From: Nitrospirota bacterium
Lineage (GTDB): Bacteria > Nitrospirota > UBA9217
Reading direction: 5' to 3'
Assembly: GCA_029858565.1 (NCBI GenBank)
Contig: JAOUEV010000001.1
Coordinates: 107,420 to 171,419 of the forward strand
DNA: 64,000 nt
Made by a program: the position numbers and the translations under genes. A model generated the notes under the pieces. The model was not told the origin of the DNA, did no database searches, and saw nothing but the letters and a program-made list of their open reading frames with translations. Below, piece after piece: positions 3,572 to 52,267 of this stretch (position 1 is its first letter; each line of letters opens with the position of its first letter).

Positions 3572-3951
3572 AGCCGGTGGCCACGGCAGAAACAATAGCG
3601 CGACAGATTTATCTGATCCGCGGACAGCACCGAAAGTATTTACCCTATGCATTTACCGAGCACGGGGCGCTCATGGCTGCGAGTGTTCTTAATACGCCGC
3701 GTGCCGTCGAGGTGAGCATTTATGTTGTGCGCGCATTCGTCAAGCTCCGGGAAATGATCGCTTCTCATAAGGATCTCGCAAATCGCTTTGATGATTTGGA
3801 GAAACGATACGATGCGCGGTTTACCGTGGTTTTCGACGCTATTCGCGAACTGATGACCGTTCCGGAGGAAGAAAAAAGAAAAATCGGGTTTCTGGCAAAG
3901 GAGAACCATGCGGTCTATGCGTCGCCTGACCGCAGTAATGCAGTGGCCTAA
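3568..3951 (+). CDS. N-truncated paralog of the upstream ORF6N-domain gene (C-terminal module only)
   Basis: aligns with the C-terminal 120 aa of ORF 3005..3571 (RKYLP, RFxVVFDAIREx, KIGFLAxE conserved); ATGA start/stop overlap. Confidence 0.5.
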   Translation: MKPVATAETIARQIYLIRGQHRKYLPYAFTEHGALMAASVLNTPRAVEVSIYVVRAFVKLREMIASHKDLANRFDDLEKRYDARFTVVFDAIRELMTVPEEEKRKIGFLAKENHAVYASPDRSNAVA

Positions 3952-6378: not shown

Positions 6379-6443
6379 TTGCGGATTGCGGATTGAAAAA
6401 ACCGCTGGCATAATCCGCAATCTGCAATCGGAAATCCGAAATC
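6371..6443. repeat. heptamer-repeat hairpin (TTGCGGA/ATCCGCA units) filling the cinA-thpR intergenic space
   Basis: left arm ttgcgtgattgcggattgcggattg, right arm taatccgcaatctgcaatcggaaatccgaaatc are reverse-complementary; same motif family as the tRNA-cluster spacers. Confidence 0.7.
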
Positions 6444-20444: not shown

Positions 20445-20521
<77 letters not shown>

Positions 20522-20588
20522 GTTTAATTGCGGATTGCGGATTGTAGATTGCGGATTGCACGTTAATCCACAATCCCAAATTTAGAAT
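20522..20588. repeat. heptamer-repeat hairpin spacer (TTGCGGA units then ATCCACAATCCCAAAT)
   Basis: aattgcggattgcggattgtagattgcggattgca ... ttaatccacaatcccaaa. Confidence 0.7.
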
Positions 20589-20665
20589 GCGCCTGTAGCT
20601 CAGCTGGATAGAGCAACAGCCTTCTAAGCTGTGGGTCAGGGGTTCGAGTCCCTTCAGGCGCGCCA
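20589..20665 (+). tRNA. tRNA-Arg (anticodon TCT)
   Basis: acceptor GCGCCTG/CAGGCGC, anticodon stem ACAGC/GCTGT with loop CTTCTAA, T-arm GGTTCGAGT, encoded CCA. Confidence 0.9.
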
Positions 20666-20817
20666 ATTCAAATGCGGAACGGGGAATGCGGAATTTGGAA
20701 TGAAATACCGCAGATCCCTGACCCGAGGGGTCAAAGGGGAGAGGCTCCCCTGAGATGAATATCGGGGGAGATTCCAGAGGGGGCTGGCCCCCGCTGGGGA
20801 GCCCTTTAGGGGCGACT

Positions 20818-20849
20818 GGTCAGGGGTTCGAGTCCCTTCAGGCGCGCCA
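20818..20849 (+). pseudogene. orphan 32-nt duplicate of the 3' end of tRNA-Arg(TCT) (T-arm + acceptor 3' strand + CCA)
   Basis: ggtcaggggttcgagtcccttcaggcgcgcca is identical to 20634..20665; no matching 5' half upstream. Confidence 0.8.
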
Positions 20850-20855
20850 TATAAC

Positions 20856-20975
20856 AATTGCGGATTTGTAAAACCGCAGCACCAATAACTGAAAAGTGTA
20901 TTCCTGATTGCAGGGTGTGATAGTCGGGCCGGAACGAAATGATTACAATCCGCAATCCGAAATCCGCAATCGGGA
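20856..20975. repeat. heptamer-repeat hairpin spacer between the tRNA-Arg fragment and tRNA-His
   Basis: caattgcggatttgtaaaaccgcagc and caatccgcaatccgaaatccgcaatcggg arms. Confidence 0.65.
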
Positions 20976-20986
20976 AATAGAAACAT

Positions 20987-21063
20987 GGTGGGCGTAGCTC
21001 AGTTGGTAGAGCACCAGGTTGTGGCCCTGGTGGTCGCGGGTTCAAGCCCCGTCGCTCACCCCA
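20987..21063 (+). tRNA. tRNA-His (anticodon GTG) with encoded G-1
   Basis: extra 5' G opposite discriminator C; anticodon stem CCAGG/CCTGG with loop TTGTGGC; encoded CCA. Confidence 0.9.
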
Positions 21064-21070
21064 ATCAATT

Positions 21071-21148
21071 GCAGTGCGGAGTGCAGAGTGCGAAGTGCGG
21101 AGTGAAGCATCGTCATTCATTCCGAATTCCGCATTCCGGACTCCGCAT
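21071..21148. repeat. heptamer-repeat hairpin spacer (GTGCGGA/GTGCGAA units vs TCCGCAT units)
   Basis: gcagtgcggagtgcagagtgcgaagtgcggagtg ... cattccgaattccgcattccggactccgcat. Confidence 0.7.
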
Positions 21149-21154
21149 TTTATT

Positions 21155-21231
21155 GCGCCCGTAGCTCAGCTGGATAGAGCGTTGGCCTCCGAAGCCAAAG
21201 GTCCCGCGTTCGAATCGCGGCGGGCGCACCA
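21155..21231 (+). tRNA. tRNA-Arg (anticodon CCG)
   Basis: acceptor GCGCCCG/CGGGCGC, anticodon stem TTGGC/GCCAA with loop CTCCGAA, encoded CCA. Confidence 0.9.
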
Positions 21232-21234
21232 TCT

Positions 21235-21323
21235 AATTGCGGATTTTCGATTGCGGATTGCGGATTGCAATACATAAAGCGGATTTTTGTAAATCCGCAA
21301 TCCGAAATCTACAATCCGAAATC
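21235..21323. repeat. heptamer-repeat hairpin spacer with central AAGCGGATTTTTGTAAATCCGC hairpin
   Basis: attgcggattttcgattgcggattgcggattgcaa ... aatccgcaatccgaaatctacaatccgaaatc. Confidence 0.7.
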
Positions 21324-21328
21324 GTCAT

Positions 21329-21405
<77 letters not shown>

Positions 21406-21572
21406 TAAGTAAATTTTGATTTCGGAATGCGAAATGCGGAATGAAAAGCGTTGTTTCGCTCCGGCGAGCGAGGAAAAAATTCCTCTGATAACCCCATTTT
21501 CCTGTTGCATCCGGTACTAAAGATGCGTATAATACGCTCCTTGTCGCAAGGTATTGTATTCCGTTTTTTAAC

Positions 21573-21648
<76 letters not shown>

Positions 21649-21765
21649 TATAAAACACCGAGAGCAGTGGGCGACTGAACGCACACTGCTCTCATTGTTA
21701 TTGCGGCATTCAAAGGGCAGGTCGTCTGGAGAACCTATCCCGGGGCCATGCGTTCCTATAACGTC

Positions 21766-21848
21766 GCGAGAGTGGCGGAACTGGCAGACGCGCTGGTCTT
21801 AGAAGCCAGTGGGCAACCGTGGGGGTTCAAGTCCCCCCTCTCGCACCA
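21766..21848 (+). tRNA. tRNA-Leu (anticodon TAG), long variable arm
   Basis: acceptor GCGAGAG/CTCTCGC, anticodon stem CTGGT/GCCAG with loop CTTAGAA, 13-nt variable arm, encoded CCA. Confidence 0.85.
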
Positions 21849-25239: not shown

Positions 25240-25336
25240 TCTCGCGCAAAGCCGCAAAGAACGCAAAGGAAATCCAAGAGCCATAGCTGCAGCAATTTAT
25301 TGACTTTCTTTGCGGCTTGGCGCCTTTGCGCGAAGA
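25240..25336. repeat. palindromic intergenic element copy B (TCTCGCGCAAAGCCGCAAAGAACGCAAAGG ... CTTTGCGGCTTGGCGCCTTTGCGCGAAGA)
   Basis: about 30-nt inverted arms around a 35-nt loop; spurious ORFs on both strands translate the repeat (FFAAWRLCAKK). Confidence 0.7.
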
Positions 25337-30855: not shown

Positions 30856-32685
30856 CTATGGCACATAGAGCGCCTTCACCATGCTGACAATGGCCTTCCA
30901 GGAGATTCCCTCGTAGTCCAGCAGTTCACCGGATTTCCCGCTCCTGGGAATACTTCTGATCGCAAGGGAATGGATCGGCACGGGACGTTTTGAAAGGGTT
31001 GCCCGCACAGCATCGGCGATGCCGCCCTCGGGAACATGGTCTTCCACAACGATGATGCATCCTGTGTCGTCCGCCGCCTGTCTGATCGTCGCGATGTCGA
31101 CCGGTTTGACGCTGTAAAGGTCGATCACGCGGATGTATATATCCTCCTTTTTCAGCTCTTCATAGGCCTTCAGCGCCTCATGGACCGTAATGCCGGCTGC
31201 GACTATCGTCGCCATATCCCCTGAGTTCGACCGCAGGACCTTGCTGCCGCCTATCCAGAAAGCTTCGTCGTTGCGATATAAAACCGCGGTAGGATTGCGC
31301 GTTGTCCTGAGATAGCTGATGCCGGTGAATTGCGCCATCAGTTCCGTCAGTTTTTCCGCGGACACGGCGTCCGAGGGATAGAGCACCACGCTCCGCTGGA
31401 CGCTTCTGAACATGGCCAGGTCCTCCAGCCCCATCTGGGAGGAGCCGTCCTCGCCGATCGACACGCCGGCGTGGGATCCGCAGAACTTGATGTTCCCGTT
31501 GGAATAGGCTGCCATGCGCACCTGGTCAAAAGCACGGGTAAAGAAAGCCGCAAAGGTGGATACAAAGGGGGTCTTGCCCCGGAGAGCCATACCGAGCGCG
31601 GCGCCTACCATATTCTGTTCAGCAATGAACATTTCAAAGAACCGCTCGGGATGTTTTGCCTTGAACAGCTCTGCATAGGTCGAATTGCTCACCTCGCCGT
31701 CAAGGACCGCCAGATCGGGATACTGCACTGCAAGGCGCGCCAGGGCCGTGCCATAGGCATAGCGCGTCGCGATCGGTTTGTCAGGATCATAGAGCGATGC
31801 CGGGGCCTTGATACTTTGCTGGTATGCCGGTCTCTCGTTGTCGGGCTTTGTCAGTGAACCGTGAACCGACTTGTCCACGGGCCCCAGCTCTTTGAGCGCC
31901 AGCTCCAGTTCATCCGAATTCAGCGCTTTGCCATGCCAGCCGTTCTTGTTCTCTATGAAAGAGACGCCCTTTCCCTTGATGGTCCGTGCGATGATCATGC
32001 AGGGCTTGTCGCCGGACTTCATTGCCTGGCCATAGGCGGTCTTGATGAGATAAGGGTCATGGCCGTCGATCTCAACCGCCAGCCAGCCGAATGCTTCTGC
32101 CCGCTTTCGGTAGATATCAAGAGCATGTCCGTACATGGTCTCTCCCCGCTGACCGAGCCGGTTCACATCCACGATCGCCGTGAGGTTCCCGAGCTTATAG
32201 TAGGAAGCGATCGCCATGGCCTCCCAGACCGATCCTTCGGCCATTTCGCCGTCACCCAGAAGCACATAGGTGCGGTAGGGGAGCTTGTCGAGGAACTTCG
32301 CGTTCAGCGCCATGCCTACGCCGATCGACAGACCCTGTCCAAGCGAGCCGGTGGCGGCTTCTGTATACCTGAACGCGGGCGTAGGATGGCCTTCCAAAGG
32401 ACTTCCGAACTTCCTGAGGCTCATAAGTTCATCGTCGGTGACAGCGCCTGCCGCTGCCCAGAGCGCGTAAAACAGCGGGGAAGCGTGGCCTTTTGAAAAA
32501 ATGAGCCTGTCGTTGTTGGGATGGCCGGGATCGTCAAGGTCATAGCTGAAGATGCCGCTGAAGAGAAGCACGGTCATCAGGTCGGCCGCTGAAAGGGAGG
32601 ATGTGGGATGGCCGGAACCGGCCCTGGTCGTCGAGACCAGGATATTATAACGGATCAATTTTGCGAGTGCTGATAGATCGTTCAC
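30856..32685 (-). CDS. tkt: transketolase
   Basis: 609 aa; TPP-binding GDG motif (LLGDGEMAEG), SGHPTSS N-terminal motif. Confidence 0.95.
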   Translation of the reverse strand: MNDLSALAKLIRYNILVSTTRAGSGHPTSSLSAADLMTVLLFSGIFSYDLDDPGHPNNDRLIFSKGHASPLFYALWAAAGAVTDDELMSLRKFGSPLEGHPTPAFRYTEAATGSLGQGLSIGVGMALNAKFLDKLPYRTYVLLGDGEMAEGSVWEAMAIASYYKLGNLTAIVDVNRLGQRGETMYGHALDIYRKRAEAFGWLAVEIDGHDPYLIKTAYGQAMKSGDKPCMIIARTIKGKGVSFIENKNGWHGKALNSDELELALKELGPVDKSVHGSLTKPDNERPAYQQSIKAPASLYDPDKPIATRYAYGTALARLAVQYPDLAVLDGEVSNSTYAELFKAKHPERFFEMFIAEQNMVGAALGMALRGKTPFVSTFAAFFTRAFDQVRMAAYSNGNIKFCGSHAGVSIGEDGSSQMGLEDLAMFRSVQRSVVLYPSDAVSAEKLTELMAQFTGISYLRTTRNPTAVLYRNDEAFWIGGSKVLRSNSGDMATIVAAGITVHEALKAYEELKKEDIYIRVIDLYSVKPVDIATIRQAADDTGCIIVVEDHVPEGGIADAVRATLSKRPVPIHSLAIRSIPRSGKSGELLDYEGISWKAIVSMVKALYVP

Positions 32686-32737
32686 AAACTCCTCCTCAAG
32701 AAACCCAGCGTTAGAACGCGGACGTTCTGCTCCCGCA

Positions 32738-33349
32738 CTAGGGCAGCAGGCTTTTTACATCCACCGGCGGCTCGTCCTGGGACCCTTCTCCCTTGGCCTT
32801 GCCTCCGATCTCCAGTCCTGCTTCGCGGTAATAATTGTACCCCGGATACTTGCCCGGCCCGCTGATAAGCAGGTCCTCCTTCTCATACACCAGGTTCGTG
32901 CGGAGATATTCTCCCATCTCGAAGTCCGGCGTGAGCTGGATCGCGCAGGTCGGGCAGGCTTCTTCGCAGTACCCGCAGAAGATGCAGCGGGAGAAATTTA
33001 TCCGAAAGAACTCCGGGTAGCGCCTTCCCATTTGGTCTTCGGTCGCCTGGAGCGAAATGCAGTCCACCGGGCAGGCAACCGCGCAGAGATGACAGGCAAC
33101 GCAACGCTCCCGTCCGTCAGGATCGCGGGAGAGAATGATCCTGCCGCGCCACCGGGGCGCGAGCGTGGAGCGCTCCTCGGGGTACTGGACCGTGATCCGC
33201 TTCCGGAACATGGTCATGAAGACCGTGAGTATGGATCGCAGAATACTAAACATGGTTGTTGACACTGAGGACACTGACAAGGCCTTTGACACAGATAACG
33301 GCGGATAGGAGCCTATGAAAATGCTGGATGAATCTGTTACAAATATCAC
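32738..33349 (-). CDS. nuoI: NADH-quinone oxidoreductase subunit I (2x[4Fe-4S] ferredoxin)
   Basis: two CxxCxxCxxxCP motifs ([24 protein letters not shown]). Confidence 0.9.
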
Positions 33350-33389
33350 GCATCTTCATAGCCGTTCTCTGAGTCTTCAGTGTCTACAA

Positions 33390-34343
33390 CTATCCTTTCA
33401 TCAGTATCCATGCACCAGTCAGTAGCAAATTCCCCACCGCCAGAGGCAGGCAGACCTTCCATCCAAAGGACATCAGCTGGTCGTACCTGGGCCGGGGAAG
33501 ACTGGCGCGCAGCAGGATGAACAGACAGATGAAAAAGAACGTCTTGAGCGTGAACCACACCAGCGGCGGCAGCCAGGGGCCGAGCCAGCCGCCGAAGAAC
33601 AGGACCGTGATGAGCGACGAGATCAAGGTGATGCCGAGATATTCGCCGACGAAGAACAGGCCGAACTTGAGGCCCGAGTACTCCGAGTGAAAGCCCGCGA
33701 CCAGTTCGCTTTCCGCCTCGGGCAGGTCAAAGGGCAGGCGGTTGGTCTCCGCGGTCCCGGCGATCAGGAACAGCATGAAGCCGACGAACTGATAGCGGAT
33801 GAACCAGCCGTCCCGCTGGGCTTCGATGATGCGGTTCAGGTCAAAGGACCCGGCGAGCATCACCACGCCCATGAGCGACAGGCCCATGAAGGCTTCGTAC
33901 GAAAGCATCTGGGCTGACGATCGGAGCCCGCCGAGGATCGAGTACTTGCTTCCCGAGGCCCATCCCGCGAGAACGACGCTGTACACGCCAAGTGACGACA
34001 TGGCGAGGAAGAAGAGCAGCCCCATGTTCAATTCCACGACCTGGATGCCCGGAGCAAAAGGCACCACGGCAAAGGACATGAGCGTGACCGTGACGATAAT
34101 GGCCGGCGCCATGATGAAGACCGGTTTGTTCGCGAAAGGCGGGACCCAGTCTTCCTTGAAGAGGACCTTGATCATGTCCGCAACGACCTGGAGCAGGCCG
34201 AAGGGGCCGACGCGGTTCGGGCCGTACCGGTCCTGCCAGAGCGCCAGCAGACGCCGTTCGAGCCAGATCAGCATCCCGCCAACGGCCAGGAGGGTGAAGA
34301 GGACGGCGAAGGAGACCAGTATGTGAGTAAGGCTGTTGCTCAT
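33390..34343 (-). CDS. nuoH: NADH-quinone oxidoreductase subunit H
   Basis: 8 TM helices, NuoH/ND1 signature; start set at MSNSLTHILVSF. Confidence 0.85.
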   Translation of the reverse strand: MSNSLTHILVSFAVLFTLLAVGGMLIWLERRLLALWQDRYGPNRVGPFGLLQVVADMIKVLFKEDWVPPFANKPVFIMAPAIIVTVTLMSFAVVPFAPGIQVVELNMGLLFFLAMSSLGVYSVVLAGWASGSKYSILGGLRSSAQMLSYEAFMGLSLMGVVMLAGSFDLNRIIEAQRDGWFIRYQFVGFMLFLIAGTAETNRLPFDLPEAESELVAGFHSEYSGLKFGLFFVGEYLGITLISSLITVLFFGGWLGPWLPPLVWFTLKTFFFICLFILLRASLPRPRYDQLMSFGWKVCLPLAVGNLLLTGAWILMKG

Positions 34344-34488
34344 GGCAATACGGATAGAACAGAAGGACCATTGATCGCACGAAGGCACGAAGTCACGAAG
34401 AAAGGCAATTTCACTCTCCTGGTCTTGATCAGAGTTGACTCCTCCGTGTCTTCGTGGCTTCGTGCGAGACTGCTTTTGACATCGTCCG

Positions 34489-37044
34489 CTACATTGTCAT
34501 CCGAGGATCCTGCTGATCGTCCATCGGTCTTCTCTTGCCAAGAGCAGGCGATAAATTACTCAATTCCTCAGATCCGAAAATGAAGTATTGCGGTGATTCT
34601 GCCGGGTCTTCACTAAGATCGATCCGGAAATACTCTGATTGGCCGCCTATCATTTTGATCAATCTCGTGCCTGTGCTCTCTTTGCGAAGGTCTCCGCCCA
34701 CTTCCTGCTGGAACCTGTTCAACGCCTGGACCGAGTTCCATCCCGGGGACCAGTACCGGGAAATGAGCGGAGCGGGCGGCTGCTGTTCCGAGCCTTCCAT
34801 GGAAAAGGCGAGCGGGCTGTCCGCGTCATACGCGGGTTTTGGTTCATGAACGGTTCGGTCGGCGATCATGGAGGTCCTGCCGCTGTAACGGTGCGACTGG
34901 CGGGGAACCTTCTGGCCGGCGATCCGGAAACCTGCAGGAGGCACCAGATCGGCCAGCTCCGCGAAGAGCGGCAGTTCCCGGCTCATCTTGCGGATAATGT
35001 CGTCTAAGGTCGCGAAACCGCCGGGAGCCGGGTGTTGCGTCGCCATCATTATAGCATTGATCCACTTCCAGCCTGCTTGAATATCTCCTCTTGGCACGAA
35101 GACCTCATTGTACCGCTGCGGCCGGGTCTCGTAATTGATCAGCGTTCCGGATGATTCTGCAAAGGTCGCCGCGGGCAGGACAACGTCAGCCTGGTCAGCT
35201 GTTCGATGCATGATATGGTCAAGAACGATGATATTCTTCGCTCTTCCGAGGAACTGTTCGACGCTTGCTTCGTCAGCTCTGCGGTAGAGGTCGTTCTCCA
35301 GGATAATGACCGTGTCCGCTAAACCATCCTGCATGACCGTGAATGCCTCGTCAAGGGTCCTTCCGCCAAGGAGTGCTGCACCTAGGGTGTTGCATTCATG
35401 TACTGCGAATGCTAATTGCACAGCTTTTCCCTTTAGCTGGAGCGCCCGGGCGATGTTCGCTGCTGTTTGTACTACTCCCGTGCTTTGGCAGCCTGTCCCG
35501 GATACGATCAGAGGATGCTTGGCATTCATGAGAACCGTTGCGATCTCTTTGGCAAGAGCGTCAACGTCCTGCCCCCTCACTTCGGTCCTCTCTCCAGAGG
35601 ATAAGGGAGGGATATTGGGATCGAGCTTCTGAGATATCGCTGACGCCAGCCGAACAATGTCCTGGATCGGAACGTGCGCTGTCTTTGCCGCGACATCATC
35701 GAGCCGGGTCTCTGCAGGAGAAATGATGTAGACCGGGCTTTTCGCGCTCTGCCCTGCGTTCCGCACGGCATTATCGTCCCAGAGCGGCAGTTTCATGGCT
35801 GCCGCGATCTCGAACTGTTTGTTCCTGCTTGCCTGACGCACTGCAAGGGCCATCAGGGGGGCTGTATTCGGTAGGTCCTCGCCAAGTATCAGGACAGCAT
35901 CGGCGGCCTGTATCTCTCGGAGCGAAGGAGAAGAGGCAGGGCTGTTCTTCTGAATGTCGATAATCAGCGAAACAAGGGATTGTTCCTCGTTCCCAATGCC
36001 GCTGAAAAAGCTATTCTCCCCGGCCAGCGTTCTGAGAGCGAAGTTCGATTCCAGCGACGCACGGGGCGAGCCTATGGCTATGACGCCTTTTGCTTTGGAC
36101 AGGATATCGGCGATATGGGTGAGTACCGTCTCTCTATCAGCTGGCTTCCCCCCCTCGCCCCGGCCCTCTCCCGCGGGGGGAGAGGGAGATTTTACCAGGG
36201 GAGTGCGGATGCGCTTATGGCTGTTCACGAACTCGTACCCGAACCTGCCCCGGTCGCAGAGGAAATAACCGTTAATGTCGCGGTTATAGCGGTTCATGAT
36301 GCGCCGCAGAGACCCGTATCGTTCACCGGCGATGGTATTGCACCCCACGCCGCAATGGACGCAGATGGACGGCGCCGTCTGGAGGTCCCACTTGCGGGTG
36401 TAATGCTCCTTGAGGGTCTTGTCCGTGAACACGCCGGTGGGACAGATCTCGATCAGGTTGCCGCTGAACTCGCTTTCGAGGGGGCCGTCCGCGTGCCTGC
36501 CGAAATAGACGTGGTCGTGGGCGCCAAAGACGTTCAGGTCCCTGCCGCCGGCCACACCTCGATAGAAGCGGACGCAGCGGTAGCACTGGATGCAGCGGTT
36601 CATCTCATGATTGAGAAAGGGGCCCAGGTCCTGGTTCTGGTGCGTGCGTTTTCTGAAACGGCTCCGCCGATAATTATGGCCCGTCATGACCGTCATATCC
36701 TGGAGATGGCATTCTCCTCCTTCGTCGCAGACCGGACAGTCATGGGGATGGTTCAGCATGAGCTGTTCGACAATGCCCTTTCTGAACGCCCGGGCTTCGG
36801 GGTCGTCCACGGAGATGCGCAGTCCTTCGGAAACCGGCGTCATGCAGGACATGATGATGCGGCCCTTGGCATCCTTGTCATCCTTGTACTGCTTCACCGC
36901 GCATTGCCTGCATGCGCCCACGGCATGCAGGGCCGGGTGCCAGCAGAAGTAAGGCAGGTCAAAGCCCAGGGAGAGGCAGGCCTGGAGGAGGTTCTGGTCA
37001 GGCTTGACCTGGTGGGGTTTGTTGTCGATAAAAATCGTCACCAT
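34489..37044 (-). CDS. nuoG: NADH-quinone oxidoreductase subunit G (75-kDa subunit, extended molybdopterin-like C-terminal domain)
   Basis: N-terminal 2Fe-2S and 4Fe-4S Cys clusters (CxxxxCxxC...C, HxxxCxxC, CxxCxxCxxxC); 851 aa. Confidence 0.9.
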   Translation of the reverse strand: MVTIFIDNKPHQVKPDQNLLQACLSLGFDLPYFCWHPALHAVGACRQCAVKQYKDDKDAKGRIIMSCMTPVSEGLRISVDDPEARAFRKGIVEQLMLNHPHDCPVCDEGGECHLQDMTVMTGHNYRRSRFRKRTHQNQDLGPFLNHEMNRCIQCYRCVRFYRGVAGGRDLNVFGAHDHVYFGRHADGPLESEFSGNLIEICPTGVFTDKTLKEHYTRKWDLQTAPSICVHCGVGCNTIAGERYGSLRRIMNRYNRDINGYFLCDRGRFGYEFVNSHKRIRTPLVKSPSPPAGEGRGEGGKPADRETVLTHIADILSKAKGVIAIGSPRASLESNFALRTLAGENSFFSGIGNEEQSLVSLIIDIQKNSPASSPSLREIQAADAVLILGEDLPNTAPLMALAVRQASRNKQFEIAAAMKLPLWDDNAVRNAGQSAKSPVYIISPAETRLDDVAAKTAHVPIQDIVRLASAISQKLDPNIPPLSSGERTEVRGQDVDALAKEIATVLMNAKHPLIVSGTGCQSTGVVQTAANIARALQLKGKAVQLAFAVHECNTLGAALLGGRTLDEAFTVMQDGLADTVIILENDLYRRADEASVEQFLGRAKNIIVLDHIMHRTADQADVVLPAATFAESSGTLINYETRPQRYNEVFVPRGDIQAGWKWINAIMMATQHPAPGGFATLDDIIRKMSRELPLFAELADLVPPAGFRIAGQKVPRQSHRYSGRTSMIADRTVHEPKPAYDADSPLAFSMEGSEQQPPAPLISRYWSPGWNSVQALNRFQQEVGGDLRKESTGTRLIKMIGGQSEYFRIDLSEDPAESPQYFIFGSEELSNLSPALGKRRPMDDQQDPRMTM

Positions 37045-37050
37045 AGACTT

Positions 37051-37527
37051 TTAGCCACGGAAGAGGCGGATACTTCTATAAAAAAGCACAGTAAACCTCT
37101 TTTGCGAACGTAAGGATTATCTAAAGTACACGACGGACTATTTTCAATTTATCAGCGAAATTGATGAGAAGGCCTACTTTCTTGCCGGTGGCCTTCAGGT
37201 AATTGATAAGCTGTGCTTCGTGAATCTTTGCCAGCTCAGAAACTGCTTTAAGTTCGACTATGACGGCGTCCTCGACAAGAAGGTCAGCGAAATATTCACC
37301 TACGAGCTTTTCCTCAAAGAATACGCTGATGGGAGCTTGTTGGCCCGCTTGCAGGCCTTTTGAAGCCAGCTTGATCATCATGGCATTCTCATATACTTTC
37401 TCGGCAAAACCAAAGCCCAGCTGATTATGAACGTCGTAGGCAGCAGAAATGATCTTGTCGGTAATATCGGCAAGATGCAGGTTCGATTCTGTTGTTGTCA
37501 TGTGTTATCCGCCTCTTCCGTGGCTAA
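37051..37527 (-). mobile_element. GxxExxY gene cassette bounded by perfect 22-bp inverted repeats (TTAGCCACGGAAGAGGCGGATA / TATCCGCCTCTTCCGTGGCTAA) inserted between nuoG and nuoF
   Basis: IR at 37051..37072 and 37506..37527 are exact reverse complements; enclosed segment is about 42% GC versus about 60% flanks; right IR overlaps the nuoF stop codon. Confidence 0.55.
37121..37501 (-). CDS. GxxExxY family protein (PD-(D/E)XK-like small protein)
   Basis: 126 aa with G-F-G-F-A-E-K-V-Y-E (GxxExxY) motif near N-terminus, conserved acidic residues downstream; low GC. Confidence 0.7.
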   Translation of the reverse strand: MTTTESNLHLADITDKIISAAYDVHNQLGFGFAEKVYENAMMIKLASKGLQAGQQAPISVFFEEKLVGEYFADLLVEDAVIVELKAVSELAKIHEAQLINYLKATGKKVGLLINFADKLKIVRRVL

Positions 37528-38804
37528 ATAGATTTCCAGGGACAATGTTTGTTGTTGATATGCGATTCAAAATCCTCCAGGAAATACTTCAACGCGCTCT
37601 GGAGAGGCTCCACCGCTCCCGGCGCCAGGGCGCAGAAGGTATTGCCCGGTCCGAGAAGCCTGCACTGTTCCGTAAGCAGGTCCAGATCTGACATTTCGCC
37701 CTTGCCTGTCTCAATGGCCTGGAGCGTCCTTTCGATCCATGGCAGGCCTTCGCGGCAGGGCGTGCACCAGCCACAGGACTCGCGGCGGAAGAACTTTTCC
37801 AGACTATGCACGAACCCGACCGGGCAGGTCCGGTCATCGAGCACGGTGATCGTCCCGGTGCCCATGCGGCTGCCCGCTTTCATGACCGAGTCGAAGTCCA
37901 TTCTGACGTTCATGTGATCCGGCGTCAGGAAGTCGGTTGAAGCGCCGCCAGGCATAAATGCCCTCAGGCGGTAACCATCCATCATGCCCCCGGCCTGCTC
38001 CTCGATCAGGTCGCTGACCATCGTTCCCATGGGCAATTCCCAGAGACCCGGGTTCCTGACCCTGCCGCTGACTCCATAGATCTTCGTACCGCTATCATTG
38101 ATCCCGCCGATCGACTTGAACCAGTCAGCACCGTTGTTCACGATATGGGGAAGGTTTACCACCGTTTCCACATTGTTCACTACCGTCGGCCGTCCCCAGA
38201 GACCGGAGACCTGGGGAAAGGGCGGTTTGGCGCGCGGGGTGGCGCGTTTGCCTTCCAGCGCATTTATCAAGGCGGTCTCTTCGCCGCAGATATACCTGCC
38301 GGCGCTGGTGTGGATCCGCAGATCAAGCGAGAATCCGGAGCCGAGGATGTTTTCGCCCAACAGCTTATTTTCGTATGCTTCTGCAATGGCCTTGTTCAGC
38401 AGCAGCTCCGCACGGCCGTATCCCTGGCGCAGGAATATGTACGCATGGGAAGCCTGGATCGCATAAGCGGCCACGACGATGCCTTCAATGAGCTGGTGAG
38501 GATCTCCTTCGAGCAGGTAACGGTCCTTGAACGCTCCTGGCTCCATTTCATCGGCATTCACAATGAAGTACTTTTGTTTTGGCGCGTTCTCACCCATGGG
38601 CACAAAGCTCCACTTCATGCCTGTGGGAAAACCCGCGCCGCCGCGACCCCGAAGGTTCGATGCCTTTACTTGGACCTGCACATCCTGCGGGGACATGGTC
38701 GAGAGCATCGTACGGACGGCCCGGTATCCGCCGGCCTGCTCGTATTCCATGAGCGATAGCGGGTCCTCGTTGGGCCGGATGTTCTTTGTCAGTGGTCGTT
38801 CCAT
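37524..38804 (-). CDS. nuoF: NADH-quinone oxidoreductase subunit F
   Basis: FMN/NADH-binding glycine-rich motifs, 4Fe-4S CxxCxxC...C (ESCGWCTPC). Confidence 0.95.
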   Translation of the reverse strand: MERPLTKNIRPNEDPLSLMEYEQAGGYRAVRTMLSTMSPQDVQVQVKASNLRGRGGAGFPTGMKWSFVPMGENAPKQKYFIVNADEMEPGAFKDRYLLEGDPHQLIEGIVVAAYAIQASHAYIFLRQGYGRAELLLNKAIAEAYENKLLGENILGSGFSLDLRIHTSAGRYICGEETALINALEGKRATPRAKPPFPQVSGLWGRPTVVNNVETVVNLPHIVNNGADWFKSIGGINDSGTKIYGVSGRVRNPGLWELPMGTMVSDLIEEQAGGMMDGYRLRAFMPGGASTDFLTPDHMNVRMDFDSVMKAGSRMGTGTITVLDDRTCPVGFVHSLEKFFRRESCGWCTPCREGLPWIERTLQAIETGKGEMSDLDLLTEQCRLLGPGNTFCALAPGAVEPLQSALKYFLEDFESHINNKHCPWKSI

Positions 38805-38907
38805 AGAATCTTATTTAGACACTGAGGACACTGAAAAAATATGAATGACTCAACATCAGAAGTTTCTTCGTCTTCTCATATGTTGTCAGTGTCCTCAGTG
38901 TCTAAAA

Positions 38908-39372
38908 TCAGCTGTATTTGCTTAATATCTCATCAATTGTTTCCGGCGTCACCGGTCCGAACAGTTCGTCGTCCACCATCATGGCAGGCGCGCGGTCGCA
39001 GGCGCCGAGGCATGAGGCAGGGAGGAGCGTGAACCTGTTGTCTCCGGTTGTCTCGCCGTATCCGATCCCGAGCTTTGTGCTGATCAGCTTATACAGGTCA
39101 TCATGCCCCAGGGACCAGCAGACCATGCTGTCGCAGAGCGCGATCACATGGCGGCCGACAGGCTTGCGGAAGATGAAGCTGTAGAACGTGGCAACAGCGT
39201 CCAGTTCGGCAGGCGTCATGGAGAGCTGCGCTGCAACATCCCGCAGGCTCGCGTCGGATACCCATCCTCGCTTTTTCTGCACCACGCGCAAGGCCTCGAT
39301 GGCCGCCGCTTCCGGCCGTTCGCAGTGCTTCAGTTCCTCGGATATTTCCTGTTTTTCCTGCTCAGTCAGCAT
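38908..39372 (-). CDS. nuoE: NADH-quinone oxidoreductase subunit E
   Basis: thioredoxin-like 2Fe-2S Cys pattern (CDSMVC...CLGAC). Confidence 0.9.
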   Translation of the reverse strand: MLTEQEKQEISEELKHCERPEAAAIEALRVVQKKRGWVSDASLRDVAAQLSMTPAELDAVATFYSFIFRKPVGRHVIALCDSMVCWSLGHDDLYKLISTKLGIGYGETTGDNRFTLLPASCLGACDRAPAMMVDDELFGPVTPETIDEILSKYS

Positions 39373-39446
39373 ATCCAGTCAATTCCTGCCTCCAGGGGGG
39401 AGAGGGGCCTATATATCTGATCTTACCCTGCGTCTCCGTGTCCAAT

Positions 39447-41195
39447 TTATCTATCCAAATCCGCCAGAATAAAATCAATGCTCCCCAGGATCGCCATGAG
39501 GTCGGCGATCATCAGACCTTTTGCGATCTTCGGCACCATCTGCATGTGCGGGAACGAAGGCGTGCGGATGCGGGTGCGGTAGGAGTGGATGCCTCCGTCG
39601 CTCACGAGATAATATCCGTTGCTGCCCTTTGTCGCTTCGATGCCCATGAACGCCTCGCCCGCTGGTATGACCGGGCCCCAGGATAGGCCCAGAAAATGGG
39701 TGATCAGGGTCTCAATGTCCTTCAGGGTCCGTTCCTTGCGCGGCGGGGTCGTGAGCGGGTGATCGGATTTATAGGATCCCTCGGGCATGTTCTTCATGCA
39801 CTGTTCAACGATCCGCATGCTCTGGCGGATCTCCTCGATGCGGACCACGGCGCGGTCATAGCAGTCGCCGTTCACTGCAGTGGGGATATCGAAGTCGAAC
39901 ATCTCGTAGCCCGAGTAAGGCCGCTTCCTTCGAAAGTCCCAATCGAGTCCGCAGGCGCGGAGACCCGGTCCGGTCACTCCCCACTCGACCGCATCTTCGA
40001 GCGAATAGGCGCCGACTCCCCGGGTCCTTCCTTTGAAGATGCTGTTCCGCATGACGATACTGTCGTATTCCTTGAGCCGGTGCGGAAGATAGGCGAGGAA
40101 ATCCCTCACCAGCCGGTCCCAGCCTTTTGGCAGGTCCTGAGAAACACCGCCGATCCGGAACCAGGCCGGGTGCATGCGGCCGCCGCAGACCGCTTCGACG
40201 ATCTCAAAGACCTTTTCCCGGTCAGAGAAAGTGTAGAACACCGGAGACAAGGCCCCCACGTCCTGGGCAAAGGTGCCGTACCAGACCAGATGGCTCTGGA
40301 TGCGGAACAGCTCTGCCATCATCACGCGGATAACCTTTACCCGGTCGGGCACCTCGATCCCCGCGAGCTTCTCGACCGCCAGTACATATGCCAGGTTGTT
40401 CATGACACCGCCGAAGTAGTCGATGCGGTCCGTGTAGGGAATGAAGGTGTGCCAGGTCTGGCGCTCGGCCATCTTTTCCGCGCCGCGGTGATGATAGCCG
40501 ATGTCCGGGACAGCGTCCACGATCTCTTCTCCGTCGAGCTGCAGGATGATGCGCAGGAGACCGTGCGTACCCGGGTGCTGGGGGCCAAGGTTCAGGAACA
40601 GGTGGTCCGTGCCGTCCTTTGCCGGCGCCATGCCCCATTCCTCGGGCCGGAACTTGAGCGCCTGCTGCGCAATGTCCATCTGGTCCTCGGGCATGCGGAA
40701 CTGTCCCATTTCCGTTGCCCGCGCGGGATGCTCCTTCCTGAGCGGGTGGCCTTCCCATGCGGGCGGCAGCAGGATGCGCTTGAGATGGGGGTGGCCGTTG
40801 AAGCGGATGCCGAAGAGGTCCCATGCTTCCCGTTCGTACCAGTTCGCGTTCCGCCAGAGTCCGGTGATGGACGGCAGGGTGTGAGTATCTCCCAGGAGCG
40901 GGACCTTGATCCTGATGTCCTCGTTCCGGTCAAAGGACAGCAGGTGGTACACAACAGTGAAATCGGACATGGGCTGGTCTGGTCTGTTCGTCCGCGTGCG
41001 TTCGTCAATGACCGTGAGGTCATAGAGCATTTTGTAGGGCCGGCCGATCTTCGTCTTGAGATGCAGGAGTACGTCGGCGGTCCGGTCAGGGGAGATCCAG
41101 AGCGTGGGGATGTTGTCCTTTGCGGGCTGTACCGCGAGGATCGCGGGGCCGAAGGAGCTGCTTAGGTCGGCGATGATAGGGTTAGGAAAAGTCAT
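39447..41195 (-). CDS. nuoCD: fused NADH-quinone oxidoreductase subunits C and D
   Basis: 582 aa; N-terminal NuoC (30-kDa) region then NuoD (49-kDa) region. Confidence 0.9.
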
Positions 41196-41376
41196 AAAAA
41201 CAAGCCATGTTTTACCGCAGAGGACGCGGAGGACGCCGAGAAAAGCCTAAAAAAAGCGCAAGAGCCGATCCTGTTTTAGAAGGATAAAACTAATGCAAAC
41301 AGGCTCATATGCTCCATAAGAATATATCTGACCTTTGAATTTCTCTGCGTCCTCTGCGGTGAAAAAGCCGTTTTTG

Positions 41377-41991
41377 TTAGACTTCATCGGGTGAACGCAG
41401 CACCGAAGCCTTCACCCGTTCCGCCCGCTTCATATCCCTCATGCATGGCGGTTCGGGAGCGGTCGTATCCTGCCGTCCCGCGACCCAGGACAGGGGGCGT
41501 TTCTCCTTGCCCACCTTGGCGCTCAGGAGCAGGAGCCCTTCCATGAAGGCTTCGGGCCGGGGAGGGCAGCCGGGAACGTAGACGTCAACGGGCAGGAGCT
41601 TGTCGACTCCCTGGACCACGCTGTAGATATCGTACATGCCGCCGGAATTGGCGCAGGAGCCCATGGAGATTACCCAGCGGGGCTCCATCATCTGTTCGTA
41701 GAGCCGTTTGATCACCGGCGCCATCTTGATGAACACCGTGCCGGCCACGATCATGAGGTCAGCTTCGCGGGGCGTGCCCCGGAGCACTTCTGCGCCATAC
41801 CGCGCGATGTCGTACTTGCTCGTAAGGCTGGCGGCCATCTCCACGTAGCAGCACGAGAGGCCGAAATTGAAGGGCCAGATCGAGTTCTTCCGGCCCCAGG
41901 CGACCATGTCCTCAAGCCGCGTCAGGAGCAGGCTTTGGCGCACTGCGTCGTCAATGTCTGGGATGCTGCTTCTGGTTGTAGACCAGTTCAT
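41377..41991 (-). CDS. nuoB: NADH-quinone oxidoreductase subunit B
   Basis: N2 cluster Cys motifs ([20 protein letters not shown]); C-terminal about 40-aa extension. Confidence 0.95.
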
Positions 41992-42136
41992 ACGTTATAA
42001 TCCCCGGAGCGGGTCAGCTTTAGAGCTTTAAGCGGTAGAGCGGTAAGCAGCCACAACCAGTTATAGAGCATTAAGCGGTAGAACCGTTAGCAACCGACTG
42101 TTTATCTTCCCTTTGTGCCTGCTTACGGCTTATCGC

Positions 42137-42553
42137 TTACTGCTTGCGACTCGATTTAACCTTTCCCCAGTCAAGAGCTCCCTGACGCAAGATGTACATG
42201 AACGCGACGGCGAACACCCCGGTGAACAGCAGGACCTCCACGTACCCGGTCCACCCGATCTCCCTCACCGACAGTGCCCAGATGTACAGATAGACCGCCT
42301 CGACATCGAAGATAAGAAAGAACATGGCGATGAGGTAGAACTTGACGTCGAACCGGCCGCCCACGGTGCCGGTGGACTGTACCCCGGACTCATAGGGCTC
42401 ATCGGTCGCGCGCTCATGGTGGCGCTGGCCAAGCAGGGCCGAGAGCGCAACAATGAACGCGACAATGGTGACCGTCGCAAGGAAGTACAGGACCAGCGGG
42501 AACAAAGGACCATCCAAGGCGATTTCGCTCCTGTTATTGCTTTTCTCAAGCAT
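42137..42553 (-). CDS. nuoA: NADH-quinone oxidoreductase subunit A
   Basis: 3 TM helices, NuoA/ND3 length; start set at internal MLEKSN Met. Confidence 0.8.
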   Translation of the reverse strand: MLEKSNNRSEIALDGPLFPLVLYFLATVTIVAFIVALSALLGQRHHERATDEPYESGVQSTGTVGGRFDVKFYLIAMFFLIFDVEAVYLYIWALSVREIGWTGYVEVLLFTGVFAVAFMYILRQGALDWGKVKSSRKQ

Positions 42554-46437: not shown

Positions 46438-46531
46438 TCTCGCGCAAAGACGCCAAGCCGCAAAGAAAGGCAATATCAAACCAAGTCATCTGGTTAAAAT
46501 TTTCTTCGCGCCTTTGCGGCTTTGCGCGAGA
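46438..46531. repeat. palindromic intergenic element copy C (TCTCGCGCAAAGACGCCAAGCCGCAAAGAAAGG ... CGCGCCTTTGCGGCTTTGCGCGAGA)
   Basis: about 30-nt inverted arms, 35-nt loop; closest to copy B. Confidence 0.7.
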
Positions 46532-52107: not shown

Positions 52108-52267
52108 TCACCTGTTCCGGTTTCGCCGGGACACACAGGCGAAGTCAAAGTCGGGGCTGGATTGAAAGTTTGGAAGGATTATCGTTCTGGTTATTCTCCG
52201 TGTCCTCCGTGGCTCCGTGGTAAATAACCGATCTTGCTTTGTATTGATCTTCTGCAGAGGGACCTGC

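Follow-up and report, generated by a model that had tools for sequence, protein, structure and literature searches.

A low-GC GxxExxY gene enclosed by a perfect inverted repeat between nuoF and nuoG of a Nitrospirota bacterium

The nuoF-nuoG spacer and its GxxExxY gene

We analyzed a 64-kb stretch of Nitrospirota DNA (hereafter referred to as the window), in which the spacer between nuoF and nuoG holds a small gene of the GxxExxY family enclosed by an inverted repeat. The minus strand carries nuoF, the GxxExxY open reading frame (ORF) and nuoG alike, so that the cassette is co-directional with the nuo operon, and both host genes scored above the NCBIfam equivalog cut-offs. The features of the junction, in the direction of transcription, are as follows.

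37524..38804, minus strand: nuoF, upstream host gene (TIGR01959, 579 bits)
37506..37528, minus strand: 5' arm (mRNA sense), TTTAGCCACGGAAGAGGCGGATA; units CCACGGA and GGCGGAT, with homologous arms in orthologues
37121..37501, minus strand: GxxExxY gene, 126 codons, predicted PD-(D/E)XK fold, contains GFGFAEKVY
37073..37120, minus strand: non-coding loop tail of 48 nt, from the GxxExxY stop to the 3' arm
37050..37072, minus strand: 3' arm (mRNA sense), TATCCGCCTCTTCCGTGGCTAAA; identified from the inverted repeat, the predicted fold and the arms of orthologues
34489..37044, minus strand: nuoG, downstream host gene (TIGR01973, 625 bits)

The arms (37050-37072 and 37506-37528) are 23 nt long, 100% complementary and separated by 433 nt; the first-pass annotation had rightly described the repeat as inverted and perfect but had given its length as 22 bp. 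TTTAGCCACGGAAGAGGCGGATA is also the forward-strand reading of 37050-37072, and this 23-mer had no other match in the 64-kb window, even at 3 mismatches, and none in 100 shuffles. As had been recognized from the outset, the repeat overlaps the signals of its neighbours: the nuoF stop codon (TAG, 37524-37526) lies inside the 5' arm, the same arm supplies a Shine-Dalgarno-like GGAAGAGG (37512-37519) 10 nt before the GxxExxY ATG, and the nuoG ATG (37042-37044) lies 5 nt past the 23-nt 3' arm, equivalent to the 6 nt given for the 22-nt version. No Shine-Dalgarno sequence is obvious for nuoG, whose start codon stands directly 3' of the hairpin base. GC content is 44.1% in the interior of the cassette and 45.4% in the ORF, compared with 58.2% in nuoF, 57.6% in nuoG and 58.4% in the window, so the low GC described earlier was real, although the figures quoted for it (42% versus 60%) were slightly overstated.

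No promoter-like or terminator-like site of its own was detected inside the cassette, and NCBIfam and Pfam profile searches gave no transposase family match there. A target-site duplication is also absent: in gene sense, ATCTA precedes the 5' arm and AGTCT follows the 3' arm. A 14-nt direct repeat (37017-37030 and 37547-37560) was considered as a target duplication and set aside, because its copies lie within nuoG and nuoF codons and the nuoF C-terminus of relatives differs there. The 64-kb window contains no second copy of the cassette and thus no sign of recent spread. Between positions 32000 and 43000 there was no rRNA or Rfam match other than a spurious sub-threshold match to an miRNA hairpin.

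The product matches TIGR04256 (GxxExxY; 142 bits against a cut-off of 35, E = 1e-41, profile positions 1-115 of 116) and PF13366 (PDDEXK_3; 141.5 bits, cut-off 22), which bears out the identity first proposed for it. It contains the signature G31-F-A-E34-K-V-Y37. Across 86 homologues, G31 and Y37 reach at least 90% conservation, and E34 never varies, nor do D73, E83 and K85, the other candidate catalytic residues. The AF2 model (pLDDT 93.9) has the alpha-beta-beta-beta-alpha-beta core with acidic and lysine residues by which the PD-(D/E)XK superfamily is recognized, and on this structural prediction the product is a GxxExxY protein of PD-(D/E)XK fold and a candidate nuclease. Sequence searches found no PDB homologue, no PF05635 match at E <= 0.1, no Y1_Tnp or IS200-like match and no PHROG match for the protein, and PADLOC returned only weak matches, to a type IIG restriction enzyme-methyltransferase and to PDC-M36A (E = 0.005 and 0.027).

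The PF13366/GxxExxY family is large (16,312 clusters at 50% identity matching at E <= 0.001) and was found on 8 of 72,556 plasmid records and in none of the phage records. A survey of the PD-(D/E)XK superfamily enters the function of PF13366 as 'Unknown' (PMC3424549), and the literature searched gave no account of GxxExxY biology, of repeats flanking GxxExxY genes or of hairpin-enclosed GxxExxY cassettes. The gene can be multi-copy, with two tandem genes in one locus (L169) and three places occupied in a Gemmatirosa plasmid; recent duplication was considered for the tandem paralogues and rejected, as they are only 53% identical.

Hairpins with and without a gene

Almost every nuo spacer of the window contains a hairpin; start codons follow closely on the 3' side of its base, and Shine-Dalgarno sequences are lacking. 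The following carry no gene.

38814..38906, minus strand: gene-less hairpin in the nuoE-nuoF spacer; arms TTTAGACACTGAGGACACTGA..., 31 nt, 94% complementary, loop of 31 nt, z = -7.6
41195..41379, minus strand: gene-less inverted repeat in the nuoB-nuoCD spacer; arms with CCGCAGAGGACGCAGAG, 37 nt, 76% complementary, 111 nt between them
34375..34467, minus strand: gene-less hairpin in the nuoG-nuoH spacer; CACGAAG and CACGGAG units, z = -2.9
33255..33390, minus strand: gene-less hairpin in the nuoH-nuoI spacer; GACACTGA, GACACAGA and GGCGGAT units, z = -5.0

The cassette arms are no private terminal repeats but an abbreviated form of the tandem units (CRCNGA / GCGGAT) by which most GxxExxY genes are bracketed across phyla. 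The first-pass annotation had taken them for termini specific to the element, a view that has to be abandoned, since the unit family is dispersed and also forms the gene-less hairpins of the nuo spacers. Per 100 kb, GxxExxY loci contained 8.9 gene-less hairpins, the window 6.2 and control loci (978 kb) 0.2, an enrichment, uncorrected for phylogeny, of about 40-fold near GxxExxY genes relative to controls that come mostly from other phyla. Arm 10-mers were more frequent in their own locus than in other loci (1.59 versus 0.48 per kb, p = 0.0013), and the complement of the cassette 5' arm was present in the nuoE-nuoF spacer of three related contigs (L083, L084 and L101). A marine Nitrospiraceae metagenome-assembled genome (MAG) has two gene-less hairpins, made of different units, at its nuoF-nuoG junction. 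The possibility that gene-less hairpins are deletion derivatives was tried and rejected, as tblastn of 35 loops recovered no GxxExxY remnants (three weak short matches). No credible second cargo family emerged from an inverted-repeat scan of GxxExxY loci or from a scan of viral contigs with an arm word, the matches in both scans being mostly gene-less hairpins.

We further compared about 90 related GxxExxY loci. The flank inverted-repeat score had a median of 31 for GxxExxY genes and 15 for control ORFs, and 49 of 72 GxxExxY genes exceeded the 95th percentile of the controls (p = 2.6e-20). The arm 6-mers GCGGAT, CACGGA and CACAGA were 10-20x above background, the arm tip had the consensus AATnGGACRCnGAT, and the unit words and arm tip were common to GxxExxY loci of Nitrospirota, Nitrospinota and Bacteroidota. 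Cultured Bacteroidota are among the carriers of unit-bracketed GxxExxY genes, and the same layout was found at the radA locus of Bacteroides finegoldii (30-nt arms, 90%) and in Bernardetia (28-nt arms, 86%). The upstream neighbour was co-directional with the GxxExxY gene in 57 of 62 loci. These comparisons show that hairpin enclosure is the usual arrangement throughout the GxxExxY family.

Folding of a 516-nt transcript segment recovered the 23-bp stem of the cassette in the MFE as well as in the centroid structure (z = -4.3). Among orthologues, 9 of 19 outer-stem pairs had changed on both sides, compared with 4.8 +/- 1.3 in shuffles (0 of 500 reached 9) and 0-3 double-sided changes when the partner was slid as a control; one pair occurred as GC in seven cases, AU in four and UA in one. 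Complementarity of the outer stem is thus maintained by paired changes among orthologues. Short-form arms are close to perfect in two relatives of 84-85% protein identity, without mismatch over 19 bp in L172 and with 1 mismatch in 20 in L171. The inner stem of long-form orthologues was 88% paired, with covariation not above shuffles. Arm mismatches on the sense strand showed no G.U bias (112 G.U versus 98 A.C, p = 0.37), so that selection at the RNA level is one candidate cause of the matching of the arms and DNA-level conversion could be another.

One explanation, possible but somewhat doubtful, is that the hairpins are host mRNA punctuation serving processing or stability, and that the GxxExxY gene has lodged in one of their loops with a product unrelated to them, the stem being only an RNase III or stability element, as in an rRNA intervening sequence. 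The occurrence of hairpins in almost every nuo spacer, with starts just 3' of the base and without Shine-Dalgarno sequences, would fit this explanation, as would the two hairpins of different units at the marine Nitrospiraceae junction, the covariation of the outer stem, the mostly gene-less matches of the viral-contig scan and the matching architecture of the Coxiella intervening sequence. However, a plain stem requires no conserved sequence, yet the units and arm tip are common to three phyla, and an invariant candidate active site under strong purifying selection implies a substrate. The lack of G.U excess over A.C on the sense strand also counts against a purely RNA-level role.

The same junction in relatives

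The cassette was found at the nuoF-nuoG junction of 16 other Nitrospirota contigs (L083-85, L091-94, L096, L098-102 and L171-173), with identities of 66-85% for the GxxExxY protein, 71-81% for the NuoF C-terminus and 81-91% for the NuoG N-terminus; the nearest database relative, 85% identical, has it at the same site. The reading frame was intact in 17 of 17 junction loci, gene distances correlated with flank distances (Mantel r = 0.44, p = 0.006), and the median dN/dS of about 0.08 indicated strong purifying selection, with dS saturated in deep pairs. GC3 was low (38-56%) in all orthologues, unlike in the highly GC3-biased nuo genes around them, and being common to all of them it is no mark of recency. 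Together, the shared site, the co-divergence with the flanks, the purifying selection and the retained low GC3 argue for an ancient, inherited gene and against a recent insertion. The model of a hairpin-enclosed gene leaves the persistence of low GC3 unexplained.

At more distant nuoF-nuoG junctions, collected by a contig search with NuoF, a GxxExxY gene was absent in 80 of 80, the best identity in this set being 67%, too distant for a true empty allele; in every sufficiently close relative the junction was already occupied by the cassette. The gene whose absence had been anticipated in relatives was thus lacking at the distant junctions and present in the 16 Nitrospirota contigs, and set against those distant operons the cassette is an insertion. 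Homologues of 50-68% identity adjoin unrelated genes, lying for example after pyruvate kinase (L086), radA (L174) and ade (L175). The first-pass annotation had proposed a hairpin-bounded mobile cassette, against which orthologues with the same gene at the same site and normal GC would speak. The same site was found and the normal GC was not; enclosure by a hairpin stands, and extends to the family, whereas recent or current mobility does not agree with occupation of one junction in 16 further contigs.

Domestication, in which the GxxExxY gene has gained a host function connected with complex I or nuo expression and is kept for it, is an unlikely reading. A position fixed across a Nitrospirota clade, the intact frames with a dN/dS of about 0.08, and translation signals lodged between the stop codon of nuoF and the start codon of nuoG are what it would predict, but homologues beside unrelated genes, absence from the 80 other nuo operons, a fold and residues of nuclease type, and a GC3 unlike that of the nuo neighbours all weigh against it.

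Less probable still, and largely refuted, is a recent horizontal insertion in which a transposon-like element would have brought the arms as fresh terminal inverted repeats and the low GC would betray foreign DNA. The perfection of the arms over 23 nt, the GC of 44-45% against 58% in the flanks, the absence from distant nuo operons and the unrelated contexts of the family (pyruvate kinase, radA, ade) had seemed to point this way. The gene and homologous arms nevertheless occupy the same junction in the 16 other contigs, synonymous sites are saturated in deep pairs while gene distances follow flank distances at a dN/dS of about 0.08, all orthologues share the low GC3 (38-56%), and near-perfect short-form arms recur in L171 and L172 at 84-85% protein identity. 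Neither a target-site duplication nor a transposase accompanies the cassette, and the family is rare on plasmids (8/72,556) and absent from phage records. Coincidental matching or misassembly, for which only the MAG origin of the source could be cited, has already been refuted by the zero matches in 100 shuffles, by independent recovery of the identical locus from an ENA assembly and a Logan run (L001 and L002), and by the homologous arms in 16 other contigs, and has a negligible probability.

Preferred explanation and comparison with known systems

We prefer, with moderate confidence, the explanation that an old, vertically inherited GxxExxY candidate-nuclease gene lies in the loop of a dispersed-repeat hairpin whose arms are short tandem units. 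From this arrangement we infer a mechanism that combines gating by an RNA stem or cutting by RNase III with a nuclease acting on hairpins. The GxxExxY gene would be transcribed solely as part of the nuo mRNA, in which the arms would form a 23-bp stem masking the GxxExxY ribosome-binding site, so that its translation would depend on a ribosome that opens the stem while terminating on nuoF. The stem would also place the nuoF stop beside the nuoG start, and, like the stem of 23S rRNA intervening sequences, it would be long enough for RNase III to recognize. Through such gating, stop-start juxtaposition or RNase III cutting, the insert would stay harmless to the operon. The nuclease, for its part, may act on the unit arrays or the hairpins themselves and, much like RAYT with REPINs, could promote their spread or persistence; alternatively, it might home into hairpin loops, with the arms serving as homology. 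Action on units or hairpins would account for the joint occurrence of the gene and gene-less hairpins in different phyla.

More tentatively, GxxExxY genes and tandem-unit hairpins may constitute a widespread, phylum-spanning replicator pair, REPIN/RAYT-like but based on a PD-(D/E)XK nuclease. Gene-bearing copies would then be 'intervening sequences' of mRNAs, their arms pairing in the transcript and gating translation of the nuclease to the upstream terminating ribosome and/or being removed by RNase III. If this is true, such elements could persist for long periods inside essential operons such as nuo, and a family of more than 16,000 clusters would gain both an assigned function and a lifestyle. 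The idea of the hairpin-bounded selfish ORF would be extended from rRNA intervening sequences to mRNAs, and the long-lived gene-repeat partnership of the REPIN/RAYT type to another enzyme fold. The systematic enclosure by unit arrays, the accompanying gene-less hairpins and the stable complex I cassette together provide a testable hypothesis about the nuclease and its DNA or RNA substrate. For annotation, low GC and perfect flanking repeats at the nuoF-nuoG cassette do not signal recent transfer.

Among known systems, insertion sequences and DNA transposons with terminal inverted repeats differ from the cassette, which has no transposase and no target-site duplication. The closest solved structures are minimal PD-(D/E)XK nucleases of Cas4 and restriction type, at an identity of only 8-23%; they share the conserved E...D...ExK...Q constellation, but the GxxExxY protein lacks an Fe-S cluster module and a CRISPR or restriction-modification neighbourhood. 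Some homing endonucleases are of PD-(D/E)XK type, e.g., I-Ssp6803I. Like their genes, the cassette places a small, selfish nuclease gene in a host transcription unit with the host function spared, and its flanking homology could permit copying into empty sites; unlike them, it lies in neither an intron nor an intein, and close relatives show no polymorphism of occupied and empty alleles.

The 23S rRNA intervening sequence of Coxiella, of 428-444 nt, has a 28-bp terminal stem, one ORF and a GC below that of the genome; it is cut by RNase III and was horizontally acquired and then inherited (PMC4990558). The cassette resembles the intervening sequences of Coxiella, Leptospira and Salmonella (PMC4990558) in its size (~430-480 nt), complementary termini with a stem of 23-28 bp, one small ORF in the loop, GC below the host, transcription within a host RNA from no promoter of its own, and an apparent single acquisition followed by vertical inheritance. 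Both have a stem long enough for RNase III, as demonstrated for the intervening sequences and presumed for the cassette. The hosts differ, being helix 25 or 45 of 23S rRNA in one case and the nuoF-nuoG spacer of a polycistronic mRNA in the other, as do the ORFs, which encode an S23p four-helix bundle (PF05635, TIGR02436) and a PD-(D/E)XK GxxExxY protein (PF13366), respectively. In Coxiella the ORF is degenerating and its product apparently absent in vivo, whereas the ORF of the cassette is clearly under purifying selection. Moreover, the cassette arms, unlike those of intervening sequences, are tandem units found also as gene-less hairpins, and carry the stop codon and ribosome-binding site of neighbouring genes.

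With REPIN/RAYT systems (PMC3337134, PMC3116915, bioRxiv 10.1101/2021.07.10.451892) the cassette shares inverted copies of a short repeat that flank the gene, dispersal of the repeat as gene-less palindromic doublets in spacers (examined over 64 kb for the cassette), genome-specific repeat variants, and long vertical inheritance with purifying selection on the gene. RAYT is an HUH/Y1 (IS200/IS605-like) transposase and typically single-copy, whereas the cassette protein has a predicted PD-(D/E)XK fold and GxxExxY genes can be multi-copy. REPIN arms are single REP palindromes, whereas those of the cassette are arrays of 7-10-nt tandem units, and spread of the hairpins by the GxxExxY protein, unlike the action of RAYT on REPINs, is a proposal. 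By analogy, the cassette is most likely comparable to 23S rRNA intervening sequences in its architecture and to REPIN/RAYT systems in the relation between gene and repeat.

Layout of the cassette and identity of its protein

An ORF bracketed by inverted repeats does lie between nuoF and nuoG, as the first-pass annotation had described:

37524-38804, minus strand: nuoF
37121-37501, minus strand: GxxExxY ORF, 126 codons
34489-37044, minus strand: nuoG

The repeat is perfect and measures 23 nt, one base more than had been reported, with arms at 37050-37072 (TTTAGCCACGGAAGAGGCGGATA) and 37506-37528 separated by 433 nt. The 23-mer has no further match in the window with up to 3 mismatches allowed (0 in 100 shuffles), and the 23-bp stem is found in both the MFE and centroid folds. 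Read in the mRNA sense, the 5' arm begins 1 base ahead of the nuoF stop codon TAG and holds the Shine-Dalgarno-like GGAAGAGG 10 nt upstream of the GxxExxY ATG, confirming the claimed stop-codon overlap and ribosome-binding motif, and the 3' arm terminates 5 nt before the nuoG ATG. The lower GC of the ORF was also borne out (45.4%, and 44.1% for the cassette interior, vs 58.2% for nuoF, 57.6% for nuoG and 58.4% for the window). A search of the cassette in the window turned up neither promoter-like nor terminator-like sites. Two independent assemblies contain this locus (database loci L001 and L002), and the operon (window 30856-42553; L001) runs nuoA, nuoB, fused nuoCD, nuoE, nuoF, GxxExxY, nuoG, nuoH, nuoI, followed by a transketolase-family gene, with nuoJ to nuoN not adjacent. 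A 14-nt direct repeat (GTTTGTTGTCGATA / GTTTGTTGTTGATA, 93%) also closely flanks the cassette (37017-37030 and 37547-37560), with one copy in N-terminal codons of nuoG and the other in C-terminal codons of nuoF; it is probably due to chance, because the nuoF C-terminus at this position reads HIREKKCPW in relatives vs HINNKHCPW in the window.

By sequence and fold alike, the ORF belongs to the GxxExxY / PF13366 family, and its proposed PD-(D/E)XK-like identity was upheld by full-length matches to TIGR04256 ('GxxExxY protein'; 142 bits, cut-off 35) and Pfam PF13366 PDDEXK_3 (141.5 bits, cut-off 22). The candidate active site is intact, with E34, D73, E83, K85 and Q97 invariant among 86 homologues, and the AlphaFold model from the alignment of these homologues is confident (pLDDT 93.9). 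Sequence searches found no solved structural relative and no PHROG match, and PADLOC returned weak matches only, to other nuclease-containing models. The family is very large, with 16,312 clusters (50% identity) matching at E <= 0.001 and 4,344 at E <= 1e-10, and the function of PF13366 is given as 'Unknown' in a survey of PD-(D/E)XK proteins (PMC3424549). Tandem and fused forms also occur: one database locus (L169) carries a GxxExxY pair (2358-2729 and 2992-3387; 53% identical), each with its own arms, and two-domain fusion proteins are found among the 250-295 aa hits (including P0121-P0126 of the representative library).

Age of the insertion and evolution of its arms

In 80 nuoF loci of other genomes (NuoF <= 67% identical), nuoG lies directly next with apparent gaps of <= 233 nt and the GxxExxY gene is absent from all 80 junctions; the gene is therefore an insertion relative to nuo operons generally, as first proposed. 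An IS-type transposon can be dismissed, as the cassette has no transposase, no target-site duplication and no second copy in the window. Nor is it linked to plasmids or phages, GxxExxY genes having appeared in 8 of 72,556 plasmid records and 0 phage records.

A recent insertion is likewise rejected. Each reasonably close GxxExxY homologue with readable context sits at the same nuoF-nuoG junction (17 loci: L083, L084 and L085; nine metagenome contigs and L100; L171, L172 and L173, the closest relatives at 79-85% identity; and the window), and the reading frame is intact in all of them. Identity to the window is 71-81% over the last 120 residues of NuoF, 81-91% over the first 150 of NuoG and 66-85% for GxxExxY, and pairwise distances of the gene and its flanks are correlated (Mantel r = 0.44, p = 0.006). 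The gene is under purifying selection (median dN/dS 0.08 among pairs with unsaturated dS), and synonymous sites are saturated in deeper orthologue pairs. Its GC is 38-46% and its GC3 38-56% in 15 of 15 loci tested, next to nuoF/nuoG genes of GC3 62-87% (only where >= 130 nt of gene was readable); low GC is therefore a stable, lasting trait of this gene and no mark of recent arrival.

The 5' side is homologous in all loci of the junction alignment, reading (C)CTT[TAG/TGA]ACAC[A/G]GAAGAGGCGGAT, then 5-6 nt, then ATG, and a third unit (ATGATAAnnGCGGATAA), present in most loci, falls within codons 1-6. Most loci have a long-form 3' side, TATCCGCCGTTATCAGG-ATTTTGATCAGTG-TAAATC[C/T]GTGTCAAAGG, in which mutual pairing of the outer units covers the nuoF stop codon, pairing of the inner units covers the GxxExxY start codon, and the middle units do not pair. 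The window sublineage (window, L171 and L172; L173 as far as it reaches) has the short 3' side TCCGC[C/A]TCTTCCGTGGCTA, which forms one continuous stem with the 5' outer and middle units (a perfect 23 bp in the window, 19 bp in L172, and 1 mismatch in 20 in L171). Perfect arms are thus common to lineages 15% apart in protein, so perfection is no sign of youth. The first-pass annotation had found a real and non-trivial structure and was wrong in what it concluded from the low GC and the perfect repeats, both being common to diverged orthologues.

Complementarity has been maintained in the outer stem, with changes to both partners in 9 of 19 pairs (shuffles 4.8 +/- 1.3, with 0/500 reaching this value; slid partner 0-3), a count qualified by the anchoring of the alignment on the unit words. 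One pair occurs as G-C (7 loci), A-U (4) or U-A (1), and the window has GCCAC/GTGGC in place of GACAC/GTGTC. The inner stem of the long form (88% paired) gave no covariation signal because it is nearly invariant.

Hairpin architecture across the family

We aligned the upstream flank of each of 72 distinct GxxExxY genes with sufficient flanks (49-100% identity) to the reverse complement of its downstream flank. The median inverted-repeat score was 31, vs 15 for 102 control ORFs of the same loci (Mann-Whitney p = 2.6e-20), and 49 of the 72 exceeded the control 95th percentile. The hairpin-bounded architecture noted in the window is real, then, and not particular to one cassette, which is one old, conserved case of a general family architecture. 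The arms consist of tandem units of ~7-10 nt (e.g., GGACACAGATGAACACAGATGAACACAGATT, ATAGAACGCGGATGACGCTGATAACGCGGATT) with their complements downstream, the words GCGGAT, CACGGA, CACAGA and CACTGA reach 10-20x background frequency in them, and AATnGGAC[A/G]CnGAT is the consensus of their outer tip; the window arm CCACGGA-AGA-GGCGGAT is a two-unit version. Annotated isolates have this layout too, as in a 'GxxExxY protein' gene of Bacteroides finegoldii between radA and a FAD-dependent protein gene (30-nt arms, 90%, made of CACAGAGGA / CGCAGAGGA / CACGGAG), and a Bernardetia gene between ade and a mannose-1-phosphate guanylyltransferase gene (28-nt arms, 86%). Neighbours are mostly co-directional (upstream 57/62, downstream 43/55) and the upstream stop codon lies a median of 74 nt from the GxxExxY ATG, by crude ORF calling and with 14 loci being nuo orthologues. 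The searchable literature yielded no description of GxxExxY flanking repeats, hairpins or operon-spacer residence, and the architecture is apparently undescribed, though curators of databases may have recorded it informally.

The same unit words build hairpins without a gene in other nuo spacers of the window:

38814-38906: nuoE-nuoF spacer hairpin, arm TTTAGACACTGAGGACACTGA, fold z = -7.6
33255-33390: nuoH-nuoI spacer hairpin, GACACTGA / GACACAGA / GGCGGAT units, fold z = -5.0
34375-34467: nuoG-nuoH spacer hairpin, CACGAAG / CACGGAG units, fold z = -2.9
41195-41379: nuoB-nuoCD spacer inverted repeat, arm CCGCAGAGGACGCAGAG, folds not significant

Defined as two facing unit clusters within 200 nt, gene-less hairpins co-occur with the gene: with kinship ignored, they number 8.9 per 100 kb at GxxExxY loci (348 kb), 6.2 in the window and 0.2 at 80 control loci (978 kb), with none in shuffles. 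Arm ten-mers recur more densely elsewhere in their own locus (1.59 per kb) than in others (0.48 per kb; Wilcoxon p = 0.0013). The nuoE-nuoF spacer of three database loci (L083, L084, L101) holds the exact complement type of the cassette 5' arm (ATCCGCCTCTTCCGTGTCAAAGG), and two gene-less hairpins built from another unit (GCTGACA) occupy the nuoF-nuoG spacer of a marine Nitrospiraceae MAG (L008). No GxxExxY remnants were found in gene-less hairpin loops. The start codons of nuoI (33253), nuoH (34343), nuoG (37044), nuoF (38804) and nuoCD (41195) each lie ~10 nt or less 3' of a hairpin base and have no recognisable Shine-Dalgarno, GxxExxY alone having one here; each spacer hairpin may juxtapose the stop codon of one gene and the start codon of the next.

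Related repeats were also observed elsewhere. Spacers of a seven-gene tRNA cluster (20445-21848; Pro, Arg-tct, His, Arg-ccg, Arg-tcg, Lys, Leu) are full of GCGGATT heptamer arrays and their complement in inverted arrangement, and 20818-20850 duplicates the tRNA-Arg(tct) 3' end. Further intergenic hairpins or arrays (57181-57376, 46438-46531, 25244-25323, 6380-6392, 52197-52219) comprise GTGCGGA heptamers, GCGCAAAG/CCGCAAAG units and CTCCGTG units. Inside nuoG, an in-frame G/C-rich palindromic repeat (36124-36201, minus strand; CTCCCTCTCCCCCCGCGGGAGAGGGCCGGGGCGAGGGGG) encodes NuoG residues ~285-302 (KSPSPPAGEGRGEGGKPA), and repeats of this type (CCTCTCCCCTGGGGGAGAGGGTTGGGGTGAGGGGGT) form inverted pairs in three database loci (L093, L098, L100). 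In IMG/VR contigs classed as viral, 31 stretches (L176-L206) contain the arm word GGACRCRGATGAACRCRGAT; those with an inverted partner are mostly gene-less hairpins (loop 16-240 nt), and none encloses a GxxExxY gene. Two adjacent lower-GC ORFs on the plus strand (2939-3571, 48%; 3568-3951, 52%) adjoin a low-GC island (2701-3200) and share similar N-terminal motifs (IYPIRGQKVMLDSDLA... and IYLIRGQHRKYLP...), which we take to resemble ORF6N / KilA-N-type domains.

Possible mechanism and comparison with known systems

The descriptive part of this account is much firmer than the mechanism, and we see an even chance that the combined explanation holds, namely an old hairpin-enclosed gene with both an RNA-stem and a nuclease-repeat mechanism. 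The gene would be expressed solely from nuo read-through transcripts, with the 23-bp stem hiding its ribosome-binding site (in long-form relatives, the start codon instead). With the nuoF stop located in the 5' arm, the stem would be opened by a ribosome that terminates on nuoF, allowing coupled translation of GxxExxY; the stem would also be a plausible RNase III substrate, by analogy with the Coxiella 23S rRNA intervening sequence. A reading in which the arms serve as RNA only finds no support in their sense-strand mismatches, among which G.U is not in excess over A.C (112 vs 98, p = 0.37), although A.A does exceed T.T (102 vs 42). A plain stem would not need conserved unit words. Conservation of these words across phyla together with a conserved nuclease suggests that the GxxExxY protein may recognise unit arrays or hairpins, either in a RAYT-REPIN-like protein-repeat relation or through homing with the arms as homology.

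Two known systems invite comparison. The Coxiella 23S rRNA intervening sequence (428-444 nt, 28-bp terminal stem, one ORF, low GC) was acquired horizontally and then descended vertically (PMC4990558); the cassette is similar in architecture, but its host RNA and ORF family are wrong for such an element. REPIN/RAYT systems (PMC3337134; PMC3116915; bioRxiv 10.1101/2021.07.10.451892) resemble it in their gene-repeat relationship and long vertical persistence, but it is not one of them because the enzyme differs. By analogy, the cassette appears akin to selfish ORF cassettes bounded by hairpins, or to partnerships of a gene with a repeat.
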